Assembly (NCBI GenBank): GCA_965229705.1
Contig: OZ245922.1
Location: 870,001-902,000 of the forward strand
Reading direction: 5' to 3'
Length of the DNA stretch: 32,000 bases
From: Candidatus Saccharimonadota bacterium
GTDB lineage: Bacteria; Patescibacteriota; Gracilibacteria; BD1-5; UBA6164
The translations under genes were made by a program, and so were the position numbers. Under the pieces are notes generated by a model that saw only the letters and a list, made by a program, of their open reading frames with translations, ran no database searches and was not told the origin of the DNA. Positions within the stretch are counted from its first letter, which is position 1. Each line of letters opens with the position of its first letter. Below, in pieces: positions 12,790 through 31,905 of this stretch.

Positions 12790-12864
12790 AAATTGAGTTT
12801 GGTATCCCCAGCTGGAATCGAACCAACATCTACCCCTTAGGAGGGGGTTATTCTATCCATTGAA
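12790..12864 (-). tRNA. tRNA-Arg (anticodon CCU), CCA encoded.
   Basis: Hand-folded cloverleaf: acceptor GTCCTCA/TGGGGAT, anticodon stem ACCCC/GGGGT, loop CTCCTAA, T-arm GTTGG-TTCGATT-CCAGC. Confidence 0.85.
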
Positions 12865-12892
12865 CTATGAGGACGAAAAAAGACGACAAGTA

Positions 12893-13468
12893 TTATACTC
12901 CAAGAAACCATATAAATCAAATAGCAATAAAGCAGATAACACAAAATATCATCAGTATGATACTCGTGCGTTTTTCATATTTGATCTGTTCCTCCAGCGT
13001 ACTGAGATGTTCTTTGAGTCATGTATTTTCAACGGCAATATGTCACTTAGATTCCTCCAGAAGAAACTGAGATTTTTTAAATTCAACGATGCTTACAGAG
13101 TTTTTTGCTATTTCTTGAGCTCTTCAAAGTTTGAGAGAAAGGTCTTGGATCACGGCATCTTTTTGTTGTATTTCACTTCTCAGATCAAGATATATTTTTT
13201 CGAGAGAGCCATTATGAGATATAGTAGATGTCTCTGATGTTTGAAAAGATTCTTTTTCTTTTGTTTGTGTATAGGAAGGATTTTGAGAAATAATAACCTT
13301 TGCTTTTTTCTCTTTTTGCGGAGAGAGATTATTGACATCATCGGCATGAAGATAGATAATCTTCCCCATTTTTTTACTTCGTATTTTTCATCATTTTGCG
13401 TATCTATCTATGCTACGAGTAGATATTCACAAAAAATCGGCAGCTTCTTGACGAGTGTAAGTATACAT
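12893..13468 (-). CDS. HTH (excisionase/MerR-like HTH_17) protein with a coiled-coil region and a C-terminal TM anchor.
   Basis: MYTYTRQEAADFL(G)ISTRSIDRYAK(GG)KIRSKKMGKIIYLHADDV, in frame with track ORF 13124..13369. C-terminus ..TSIILMIFCVICFIAIGFIWFLGV-TAA(12893). Confidence 0.65.
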
Positions 13469-13576
13469 AAGAATAATTCATAAAATACTGTCTATAATAC
13501 TATAAAAAGAACCATTTACTCGCAAAAGTTTTTGTCTACTTTATGATTGACACTTATTTTTTTCTTTTTAAAAAAC

Positions 13577-13947: not shown

Positions 13948-14024
13948 GTCACTATAGCTCAGTTGGTTAGAGCGCAGGATTCATATCCCTGAGGTCGGTG
14001 GTTCAACTCCACCTAGTGACACCA
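13948..14024 (+). tRNA. Elongator tRNA with CAU anticodon (Met or lysidine-Ile2; not resolvable by eye), CCA encoded.
   Basis: Acceptor GTCACTA/TAGTGAC, D-arm GCTC-AGTTGGTTA-GAGC, anticodon loop TTCATAT (A31xC39 mismatch), T-arm GGTGG-TTCAACT-CCACC. Confidence 0.8.
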
Positions 14025-14541
14025 ATTTTATACAAAAAGCTAGTGGGAGTTGAGTGGAGGCACTGATTTCCAGTCTGCGCGAAGCGCAAAGATGGAAATT
14101 GATTGCGAGGAATACGAGCAATCACCGACGGTCTGAGAGCTACTGCTTGTGAAGCAAGTTGTAGCGAAAGACAACTCCACCTAGTGACACCAATTTTATA
14201 CAAAAAGCTAGTGGGAGTTGAGTGGAGGCACTGATTTCCAGTCTGCGCGAAGCGCAAAGATGGAAATTGATTGCGAGGAATACGAGCAATCACCGACGGT
14301 CTGAGAGCTACTGCTTGTGAAGCAAGTTGTAGCGAAAGACAACTCCACCTAGTGACACCAATTTTATACAAAAAGCTAGTGGGAGTTGAGTGGAGGCACT
14401 GATTTCCAGTCTGCGCGAAGCGCAAAGATGGAAATTGATTGCGAGGAATACGAGCAATCACCGACGGTCTGAGAGCTACTACTTGTGAAGCAAGTTGTAG
14501 CGAAAGACAACTCCATCTAGTGACACCAATTTATACAAAAA
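14004..14541 (+). repeat. Tandem array of 3 full 168-bp units plus a terminal partial copy. Each unit begins with the tRNA(CAU) T-loop-to-CCA segment plus 16 nt of trailer.
   Basis: CAACTCCACCTAGTGACACCAATTTTATACAAAAA recurs at 14004, 14172 and 14340. A slightly divergent copy at 14508 has CCATC instead of CCACC and one T fewer. The three units look identical by eye. Confidence 0.9.
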
Positions 14542-23649: not shown

Positions 23650-23660
23650 CATAAAAAAAT

Positions 23661-25568
<1,908 letters not shown>

Positions 25569-29186: not shown

Positions 29187-29214
29187 TTGACTTTACATGT
29201 CTTGTGCTTAATAT
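29187..29214 (+). promoter_or_regulatory. Stable-RNA promoter for the tRNA-Asn/Ser/Ser/CAU cluster.
   Basis: TTGACT (29187-92), 16-nt spacer, TAATAT (29209-14), then discriminator CCCCGAGCTTTCAG. Confidence 0.6.
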
Positions 29215-29237: not shown

Positions 29238-29312
29238 TCCTCCGTAGCTCAGCGGTAGAGTAGACGGCTGTTAACCGTTTGGTCACTGGTTCGAATCCAG
29301 TCGGGGGAGCCA
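29238..29312 (+). tRNA. tRNA-Asn (GUU), CCA encoded.
   Basis: Acceptor TCCTCCG/CGGGGGA, anticodon stem GACGG/CCGTT, loop CTGTTAA, T-arm ACTGG-TTCGAAT-CCAGT. Confidence 0.88.
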
Positions 29313-29516
29313 TTTAAAATAGCACGAGATTGGCATTAGAGTTTTTCATACTTTATGTTTCTGACTGGATGAGAAGTTTATGCCCCGCAGGGGTAAATCC
29401 AGTCGGGGGAGCCATTTAAAATAGCACGAGATTGGCATTAGAGTTTTTCATACTTTATGTTTCTGACTGGATGAGAAGTTTATGCCCCGCAGGGGTAAAT
29501 CCAGTCGGGGAGCCAT
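29294..29516 (+). repeat. Two tandem 102-bp units plus a terminal partial copy. Each re-creates the tRNA-Asn 3' end (AATCCAGTCGGGGGAGCCA).
   Basis: AATCC.. copies at 29294, 29396 and 29498. The terminal copy has GGGG instead of GGGGG and a different trailer. Confidence 0.9.
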
Positions 29517-29572
29517 AAAAAATTATCCTTAATTTCCCCTCTCCTTTGAGGAGAGCTTTGGAATAAGGTTTT

Positions 29573-29662
29573 GGAGAGATGGCTGAGTGGTCGAAGGCAA
29601 CGGTCTTGAAAACCGTCGAGGCTTCCGGGTCTCCCAGGGTTCGAATCCCTGTCTCTCCGCCA
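29573..29662 (+). tRNA. tRNA-Ser (UGA), long variable arm, CCA encoded.
   Basis: GGAGAGATGGCTGAGTGGTCGAAGGC.., anticodon stem ACGGT/ACCGT, loop CTTGAAA, T-arm CAGGG-TTCGAAT-CCCTG. Confidence 0.88.
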
Positions 29663-29790
29663 TTTTAATATCACAAAGAGTTATTTTATAGTTTTCGTGA
29701 TAGATTGTAGAGAAAATGTGGGATGAGAAGTTTATGCCCCGTAGGGGTAAATCCCTGTCTCTCCGCCATTTTAATATCACAAAGAGTTAT
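29644..29790 (+). repeat. One 106-bp unit duplicating the tRNA-Ser(UGA) 3' end plus 22 nt of trailer.
   Basis: AATCCCTGTCTCTCCGCCATTTTAATATCACAAAGAGTTAT occurs at 29644 and again at 29750. Confidence 0.9.
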
Positions 29791-30292: not shown

Positions 30293-30430
30293 GAGCCGGC
30301 TTTCAAATCGGAAGGCGCAAAAATTGCTCTTTAAAATAAGCAGAATATTAGAAAAAAGTGACACTAAGTGCTTTGGAAAAAACTTAAAAAATCAAAGTCC
30401 TATATTGTAGTATATAATGTAGGCATTACG

Positions 30431-31905
<1,475 letters not shown>

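Follow-up and report, generated by a model that had tools for sequence, protein, structure and literature searches.

Two tandem 102-bp units that each rebuild the 3′ end of the tRNA stand directly behind a tRNA-Asn gene in the DNA analysed here (the window, meaning the whole stretch of 32,000 nt), and on balance they are probably a miniature RtT-type RNA module of the tRNA trailer, which would be co-transcribed with the tRNA and whose arrays would change by unequal recombination. The finding is real, and both its distribution and its conservation are out of the ordinary. The unit is most aptly grouped with the tRNA-linked repeats of the RtT kind, as a new, miniature version of them, and its presence at 11 or more tRNA specificities in what are the most reduced of known bacteria suggests that the RtT structure is not an enterobacterial curiosity. 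Moreover, it defines a minimal conserved core, composed of a closing helix, a GAGAAGUUUA bulge and a G-U-containing hairpin, which is open to direct mutation, pull-down and assay. The “pseudo tRNA 3′ ends” of Patescibacteria are thus not automatically the scars of prophages or islands.

A conserved core precedes each regenerated tRNA end

The first-pass annotation of the window had described a tRNA-Asn followed by two 102-bp units with identical 83-nt cargos, and this description holds: the segments 29294-29395 and 29396-29497 are 100% identical (find_repeats), and with them the cargos that they enclose. The 3′-end string AATCCAGTCGGGG recurs, as had been claimed, at 29294, 29396 and 29498. 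The last of these copies (29498-29515) is indeed degenerate, with GGGG for GGGGG and a different trailer after it; the full 19-nt string from A58 to CCA is found at 29294 and 29396, and the third copy is one G short. The tandem repeat finder TRF sees the same array as a 102-bp period with 2.3 copies and 97% matches at 29294-29523, the copy number of two at tRNA-Asn being that of the assembly as it stands.

What the annotation had overlooked is a 26-nt core, GAGAAGTTTATGCCCCGNAGGGGTAA, immediately before every rebuilt 3′ end. The conserved motif corresponds to the last 28 nt of each Asn cargo, and a 34-nt string composed of these 28 nt plus the first bases of the tRNA copy, GGATGAGAAGTTTATGCCCCGCAGGGGTAAATCC, occurs three times in the window (29367, 29469 and 29721) versus none in 100 shuffles. 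The third occurrence, with one mismatch, spans 29721-29754 behind a different tRNA, the neighbouring tRNA-Ser(TGA), where a 41-nt direct repeat links 29644-29684 with 29750-29790. In all of these units the order of the parts is the same: a spacer, the 5′ strand of a helix that we call P1, the core, and finally the copied tRNA 3′ piece, which itself serves as the 3′ strand of P1. The core in turn is laid out as the GAGAAGUUUA bulge, a hairpin UGCCCC-GNA-GGGGUA and one A (Table 1). The possibility that the unit is a degenerate copy of a whole tRNA was rejected, since the spacer aligns with the 5′ part of the tRNA no better than shuffles do.

Table 1. Features of the tRNA-Asn and tRNA-Ser(TGA) loci, in window positions.
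Feature	Position	Strand	Basis or remark
Promoter-like candidate TTGACT-16-TAATAT, upstream of tRNA-Asn	29187..29214	+	Consensus scan 9/12, a consensus match alone
tRNA-Asn(GTT), CCA encoded	29238..29312	+	ARAGORN; Rfam tRNA 66.3 bits
Unit 1, variable trailer part	29313..29357	+	59% identity to the orthologous L014 trailer
Unit 1, P1 5′ strand TTTCTGACTGGAT	29358..29370	+	Pairs with 29397-29409; P1 covaries across the family
Unit 1, conserved core GAGAAGTTTATGCCCCGCAGGGGTAA	29371..29396	+	10-nt purine-rich bulge and 6-bp hairpin with GNA triloop
Unit 1, copy of tRNA-Asn from T-loop A58 to CCA, AATCCAGTCGGGGGAGCCA	29396..29414	+	
Unit 2, trailer part	29415..29459	+	100% the same as unit 1 (repeat family D1)
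Unit 2, P1 5′ strand	29460..29472	+	
Unit 2, conserved core	29473..29498	+	
Terminal tRNA-Asn 3′-end copy, GGGG	29498..29515	+	Different trailer follows
Hairpin CTCTCC-TTTGA-GGAGAG in the distal trailer	29539..29555	+	Similar sequence after the Ser unit (family D4)
tRNA-Ser(TGA)	29573..29662	+	ARAGORN, Rfam
Ser unit, P1 5′ strand GGGAT, 5 pairs	29720..29724	+	
Ser unit, conserved core, loop GTA	29725..29750	+	
Copy of tRNA-Ser(TGA) from A58 to CCA, plus 22 nt of trailer	29750..29790	+	Family D2, 100%

Both loci belong to a tRNA cluster (Asn, Ser(TGA), Ser(GCT), Met) located just upstream of the rRNA operon, whose 16S gene lies at 30430-31905 (Rfam), in a window with a G+C content of 36%. A search of the window loci, together with several related ones, against Rfam returned tRNAs and noise alone, either at the gathering threshold or at E values up to 10, and the hairpin of the distal Asn trailer received no call in the terminator scan. 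Each Asn unit also holds a weak candidate sigma-70-like site, TTGGCA-18-TATGTT (9/12; 29330-29359 and 29432-29461), whose candidate start would fall approximately at the P1 5′ strand.

The window genome uses genetic code 25, the code of Gracilibacteria and Absconditabacteria (Patescibacteria/CPR), and is thus of the type found in these two groups. TGA is a sense codon in it, with 15 in-frame occurrences in gyrB (23655-25568), and the coverage of the window by open reading frames is about tenfold higher when TGA is not read as a stop. In the N-terminal stretch, which was compared with the E. coli GyrB sequence, the TGA positions correspond to glycines of E. coli.

Distribution behind tRNA genes

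The unit was sought in one genome per species with the exact pattern GAGAAGNNNATGCCCCNNNGGGGTAA, and in metagenomes with a pattern that leaves the hairpin free, GGATGAGAAGYTTNTG-N7-30-GTAAATC. The genome scan gave 42 loci, 41 of them real and one (L010) a chance match inside a coding gene. Most of the real loci come from Patescibacteria MAGs (Moranbacteria, Gracilibacteria, Peribacteria, Peregrinibacteria, Parcubacteria/Paceibacterota and Shapirobacteria), and 12 carry the record labels Bdellovibrionales, Gammaproteobacteria or Oscillospiraceae, which are given here as recorded. The metagenome scan added at least 136 units on at least 120 contigs, which brings the loci carrying the unit to at least about 160 in genomes and metagenomes together.

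In both sets the unit follows a tRNA of the same strand at a distance of a few nt up to about 100 nt, 8-110 nt separating tRNA and core in most loci, and its 3′ piece begins at T-loop position 58-60. Among the metagenome matches listed, the tRNA is on the same strand in all 100 units that have one upstream, and in 80 of these 100 the 3′ piece is that of the upstream tRNA. Exact identity between the piece and its tRNA was found for 11 specificities: Ser (54 units), Tyr, Gln, Asn, Ala, Lys, Val, Pro, Asp, His and Ile. Tandem arrays of two to five units exist in L023, L025, L014 and L119, the number elsewhere ranging from one to five, and a few orphan units are not preceded by any tRNA. In 75 of 117 verified cases CCA is not encoded in the tRNA gene, which makes a tRNA-type 3′ maturation of those units doubtful.

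Structure of the unit

At tRNA-Asn, P1 comprises 13 contiguous pairs, several of them G-U, which join the P1 5′ strand to the copied T-stem and acceptor 3′ strand, and the hairpin of the core (P2) has 6 bp (U-A, G-U and four C-G). Across the family, the proposed P1/P2 structure leaves 87% of cells paired versus about 80% in shuffles (42 and 96 distinct sequences), and P1/P2 slid by one to three columns pairs at most 55%. The two P1 pairs that close onto the core involve T-loop nucleotides 59-60, outside the T stem of the tRNA, and they covary (UA 35, CG 4, UG 3 at one pair; AU 38, GC 2, GU 1 at the other). The outer four pairs, at the level of the acceptor, are formed in about 50-75% of the units, so a tRNA-like top half is not general. 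The hairpin of the core is 99.6% paired, with a mostly invariant sequence and a conserved G-U pair; its loop tolerates insertions of 11-30 nt, its natural variants still pair (CCC-GUAA-GGG in L014, and CCCA...UGGG), and it is kept in a frequent 43-44-nt class with the loop GRAGCG(N)AGCGNA. As both scans fixed most positions of the core, its conservation is overestimated, an effect that does not touch the covariation of P1 or the free positions of the hairpin. Counts of wobble versus A-C pairs were discarded as a test of the strand, being confounded by A-rich spacers opposite the C-rich tRNA strand.

Each unit thus consists of a fast-evolving spacer, a strand complementary to the 3′ strand of the T stem (at Asn, also to that of the acceptor), a strongly conserved 26-nt core that stands in for the T loop, and the tRNA copy from A58 to CCA. 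These features are compatible with the following course of events. Considering its same-strand placement and its position in a tRNA-rRNA operon, we infer that the unit is transcribed together with the tRNA. The P1/P2 fold would then resemble the top half of a tRNA with the core hairpin at the place of the T loop, and the tRNA-identical 3′ tail of the folded unit may be free or partly paired. By analogy with the E. coli rtT RNA, the unit would be released as a small stable RNA, the invariant core being a putative contact for a widely conserved partner.

tRNA-like 3′ modules act as handles for processing or stability in mascRNA-type elements, in RNase P external guide sequences and in tRNA scaffolds. 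The window unit shares with these modules a T-arm-like helix, an acceptor 3′ strand and NCCA at the 3′ end, but differs from them in that the acceptor-level pairing is weak in many units of its type. Searches for hammerhead, twister, pistol, hatchet and HDV-like ribozymes gave no Rfam match at E values up to 10. A hammerhead reading, suggested by the resemblance of GGAUGAGAAG to CUGAUGAG, was rejected because, as we read the sequence, it offers neither the required G8/A9 register nor a GAAA box behind stem II. A guide for CRISPR or transposon homing was likewise looked for, and there are no cas, tnpB or transposase genes nearby.

It has also to be considered whether translation from the AUG within GGAUGAGAAG yields a very small basic peptide, comparable to Tpr, the 29-amino-acid product predicted for the tyrT repeats of E. 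coli. AUG AGA AGY UUN (Met-Arg-Ser-Leu/Phe) is common to the CPR units and E. coli, and the long-loop variants would give Arg/Lys-rich peptides. However, the AUG is buried in P1, a Shine-Dalgarno sequence is ruled out because the upstream strand varies with the tRNA, and the frame enters the tRNA copy and ends at arbitrary stops, after 16 codons at Asn and 44 at Ser. As the third codon positions are moreover invariant while the pairing of the hairpin is kept, we judge such a peptide highly improbable. Coding in general, either sense (MRSLCP...) or antisense (...WDLPLRGINFSS), was discarded, since the hairpin is kept through non-synonymous changes; in L021, the antisense ...WDLPLRGINFSS forms the tail that a serine recombinase ORF gains by reading through.

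Likeness to the RtT units of E. coli

The nearest known parallel is the E. coli tyrT locus, for which Egan and Landy reportedly described 178-bp repeats in 1978, and Bosl and Kersten are said to have described the rtT RNA in 1991. According to the literature, this RNA is released as a small stable RNA. The tyrT units bear the RefSeq annotation “RtT sRNA, processed from tyrT transcript” and score 121-134 bits with Rfam RF00391. Both the E. coli and the window units come immediately after a tRNA, with which they share the strand, and are arranged in tandem (three units in the E. coli locus, L043). The E. coli unit ends in AATCCTTCCCCCACCACCA, the 19 nt of tRNA-Tyr from A58 to CCA, that is, with the same junction and the same length as the window unit with its end AATCCAGTCGGGGGAGCCA. 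A closing helix is present in both, formed by GGGGAAGGAU/AUCCUUCCCC in E. coli (Rfam consensus structure) and 13 bp long at tRNA-Asn of the window.

Short boxes are shared as well. Directly 3′ of the closing strand, both the E. coli RtT and the CPR units carry GGAUGAGAAG(C/U)UU, which in E. coli reads GAGAAGCUU. The box GGAUGAGAA(C/G)CUU, whose GGAUGAGAA is capitalised in the Rfam consensus and thus marks strongly conserved positions, takes the form GGATGAGAAGTTT in the window, whereas L035 and two of the E. coli units (2 and 3) have exactly GGATGAGAAGCTT. The CPR-consensus 13-mer GGATGAGAAGYTT is exact in E. coli units 2 and 3 and has two mismatches in unit 1, which makes three matches at up to two mismatches in E. 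coli, versus 0.10 expected. On the 3′ side, just before the tRNA copy, E. coli has GAGUAAUCC and the window GGGGUAAAUCC, with (G)UAAUCC in common, and GGAGCGAAGCG of E. coli unit 1 equals the loop of the long-loop CPR class, a coincidence that is weakly significant when taken alone.

The two kinds of unit differ in size and range. The E. coli unit has 178 bp and a multi-hairpin interior of about 90 nt, whereas the window unit has a 15-nt hairpin, with the 11-30-nt loops as intermediates; and E. coli RtT is tied to tRNA-Tyr and to enterobacteria, whereas the mini units occur at 11 or more tRNA specificities and in Patescibacteria. Strict membership of RF00391 fails: the RtT covariance model has no match in the window or in the CPR loci, at the gathering threshold or at E values up to 10, and conversely a covariance model of the mini unit (R1) does not find E. 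coli RtT. With the models failing both ways, the link with RtT rests on the architecture and on the 13-nt and 11-nt boxes. The shared junction, helix and boxes lead us to read the CPR element as a miniature of the RtT type, its interior of about 90 nt reduced to one hairpin.

A candidate for a further transcript of this kind is sX4 of Xanthomonas (Rfam RF02223), which covers a tRNA-Ser and its trailer and gives Northern signals of 280-300 nt, longer than the tRNA (PMC3300014). The end of its consensus, ...GGGGGGUGAGA, resembles the P1 5′ strand and the start of the RtT box, so RtT-like units may also exist behind tRNA-Ser in Xanthomonas. The sX4 model yields sub-threshold matches of 32-37 bits (gathering score 70) in the window (29563-29713), L075 and L121, which lie over a tRNA-Ser together with its trailer and are driven by the tRNA-Ser part.

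Inheritance and dynamics of the arrays

A syntenic relative, L014, preserves the order Asn, Ser(tga), Ser(gct), Met and then a promoter, with the copy numbers exchanged: one Asn unit and two 104-bp Ser(tga) units, versus two and one in the window. Identity between both loci amounts to 95% and 84% for the tRNAs, 59% and 65% for the spacers, 96% and 92% for the cores and 50% for the upstream region, and the single change in the core is two-sided and keeps a perfect hairpin. Similarly, the Asp units of three Moranbacteria-type loci have an identical core and spacers without sequence relation. In the sequences compared, the core is conserved about as well as the adjacent tRNAs; its conservation while the trailers drift indicates purifying selection on it, and both comparisons show that the units are inherited at orthologous tRNAs, copy number alone being labile. 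The pattern, as read from alignments, fits a conserved RNA module under purifying selection whose copy number changes by unequal recombination, and fits less well an insertion process that is active now.

Two statements of the first-pass annotation can be revisited in this light. The recurrence at a second tRNA had been taken to favour a process that targets T loops over a one-off slippage event; a one-off event is indeed excluded by the recurrence, and a process aimed at T loops is not borne out, given the orthologous retention and the maintenance of the core. An identical, fixed trailer in relatives had been named as a refuting observation, and what we find is mixed: the presence of the units is fixed, and their copy number and trailer sequence vary.

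A local accident, either a single slippage duplication or a mis-assembly, has in its favour that both 102-bp copies are perfect and that the MAG was probably assembled from short reads. Against it stand the second locus of the window, the reciprocal copy numbers of L014, the approximately 160 independent assemblies and the analogous structure in complete E. coli genomes, which make it extremely improbable.

For a conserved module inherited in place, the arrays would grow, shrink and swap units by unequal homologous recombination or replication slippage, for which the repeated tRNA 3′ ends, as direct repeats of 19-41 nt, would offer the substrate, and such crossing-over or slippage would suffice for a 2.3-copy array with a more degenerate terminal copy. 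A degenerate terminal copy is also seen in L119, and the copy differs in E. coli unit 1 too.

Some arrays have a composite make-up. L119 (5790-6410) has two adjoining arrays, with two units behind Ser(gct) and four behind Ser(tga), and the later units of the Ser(tga) array bear the core variant of the Ser(gct) array along with its 3′ piece, so that core and piece have been exchanged between the neighbours. At Ser(gct), the last copy of the array has CCGCCA, versus CCGCAT in the functional tRNA and in the inner copy. In L042 and L037, from the same MAG, the tRNA-Ala, spacer, P1 strand and core are identical; the distal 3′ piece of L042 is that of another tRNA-Ala allele (as in L018 and L032), and its P1 is broken. 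The L042 chimera looks like the product of a recombination within the conserved core between diverged alleles.

Mobile elements and attachment sites

The same observations could be seen as the trace of a non-autonomous selfish element that inserts in T loops or behind tRNAs and regenerates the 3′ end, leaving the host tRNA intact, with the core as the end recognised by an enzyme or ribozyme. Such an element would account for one core behind at least 11 tRNA specificities in very distant lineages, for a junction that invariably falls within the 3′ half of the T loop, a geometry shared by three unrelated cargos, and for the different proximal and distal trailers at Asn. It could also explain the terminal copy of L119, which keeps CCA where the functional tRNA reads CAT, the foreign tRNA-Ala allele in the distal piece of L042, and the orphan units, two of which flank a 12.7-kb island in L132. 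Nevertheless, L042 and L119 are equally explained by recombination of alleles or arrays within the core. No recurrent neighbour protein emerged from the ORF clustering of the 41 loci, the Pfam scan of the neighbouring proteins found no recombinase near the unit in the window, and the unit has no matches in viral contigs, GenBank phages or plasmids. Furthermore, orthologous positions have been kept while the spacers diverged to about 60%, and the P1 5′ strand is tailored to each tRNA, a strand that a hopping element cannot carry. We thus regard a selfish element as rather unlikely.

In L132, the orphan units (165-207 and 12855-12897) have similar flanks and no upstream tRNA, and the 12.7-kb stretch that they bracket encodes an RVT_1 reverse transcriptase, RadC, a MutH-like nuclease with a C5 methylase, and an IS3-type transposase.

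A related proposal is that the units are remnants of attachment sites of integrases (T-loop-class tyrosine or large serine recombinases), the core being a binding arm and the arrays the result of repeated integration. Williams reportedly described in 2002 a T-loop class among the attachment sites in tRNA genes. Sites of this class resemble the window loci in their direct repeats of the tRNA 3′ end from the T loop, in the intact tRNA and in the possibility of serial repeats; the window differs from them in having just 83 nt between repeats, no integrase and no element body, and a conserved hairpin that is RNA-like and includes a G-U pair. In L021, L020, L096 and L053/L122, genes for large serine recombinases do extend into the unit, and serial repeats of tRNA or tmRNA 3′ ends are typical of successive integrations, the ssrA islands of Dehalococcoides (PMC3146451) being an example. 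However, a recombinase gene is found at a handful of the approximately 160 loci, where the similarity of the recombinase proteins is confined to the unit itself, and the 8-110 nt between tRNA and core in most loci leave no element body. The conserved G-U pair and the strict same-strand orientation, moreover, fit an RNA and not a duplex DNA site, and an origin as attachment-site remnants seems very unlikely.

The recombinase genes lie on the opposite strand and enter or adjoin the unit (L021 2585-4177, L020 7691-7999, L096 919-2256, L053 8836-9567). The ORF of L021 continues across the tRNA copy and the core and on through tRNA-Ser (...RRGWDLPLRGINFSS...), and in L053/L122 the core is followed by a piece that does not resemble a tRNA. 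Some serine recombinase elements may use the unit, or the 3′ end of tRNA-Ser, as their attachment site.

Other cargos at the same junction

A junction within the 3′ half of the T loop is also seen at the second tRNA of the window, at the tRNA-Met of a 14-kb locus, at about 160 or more loci elsewhere and at E. coli tyrT. At that 14-kb locus, the claim that the same architecture exists with a different tRNA and an unrelated cargo proved correct. Such recurrence could point to an ancient, perhaps pan-bacterial, class of RNA modules built on the top half of the tRNA, with a cargo replacing the T loop, and spreading from one tRNA gene to another through a T-arm-directed process based on RNA or on recombination, in which the 26-nt mini-RtT would be the minimal active core and the other cargos (the 168-nt Met unit and the type 2 unit of Moranbacteria) would be passengers, a broader proposal that we hold to be unlikely.

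At tRNA-Met(CAT) (13948-14541), 3.2 copies of a 168-bp unit regenerate the tRNA from T-loop C56 to CCA. This unit (14025-14192) has no GAGAAG core and possesses its own closing helix, CUAGUGGGAGUUG/CAACUCCACCUAG; it folds into four hairpins with -60.2 kcal/mol (z = -5.3), a value that none of 200 shuffles equals. It has no match in Rfam and no detectable similarity to E. coli RtT, and its hammerhead-like CUGAGAG...CGAAAG was dismissed because the register of the core does not fit.

Another, “type 2” cargo of about 130 nt, GC-rich and with the sequence ...CGAACGGGAAGGGGUCGGGAAACGGGAG...GCAGGCCGGAGG..., was observed in L018 (reverse complement, about 520-700), L004 and L009. It abuts a regenerated 3′ end of tRNA-Ala or tRNA-Asp and can share an array with a mini-RtT unit. 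Its copies are significantly similar among themselves (0 of 500 shuffles), not to RtT, and have no Rfam match. A kinship of the type 2 and type 3 cargos with RtT was set aside, as no sequence relation was detected.

Among the neighbouring proteins of the window, Pfam identified an AAA_14/DUF4143 ATPase and an HTH_17 protein. The latter (12800-13540, minus strand) is of the excisionase type (E = 6e-6); it adjoins tRNA-Arg(CCT) and lies about 400 bp from a tRNA-Glu/Met/Met cluster.
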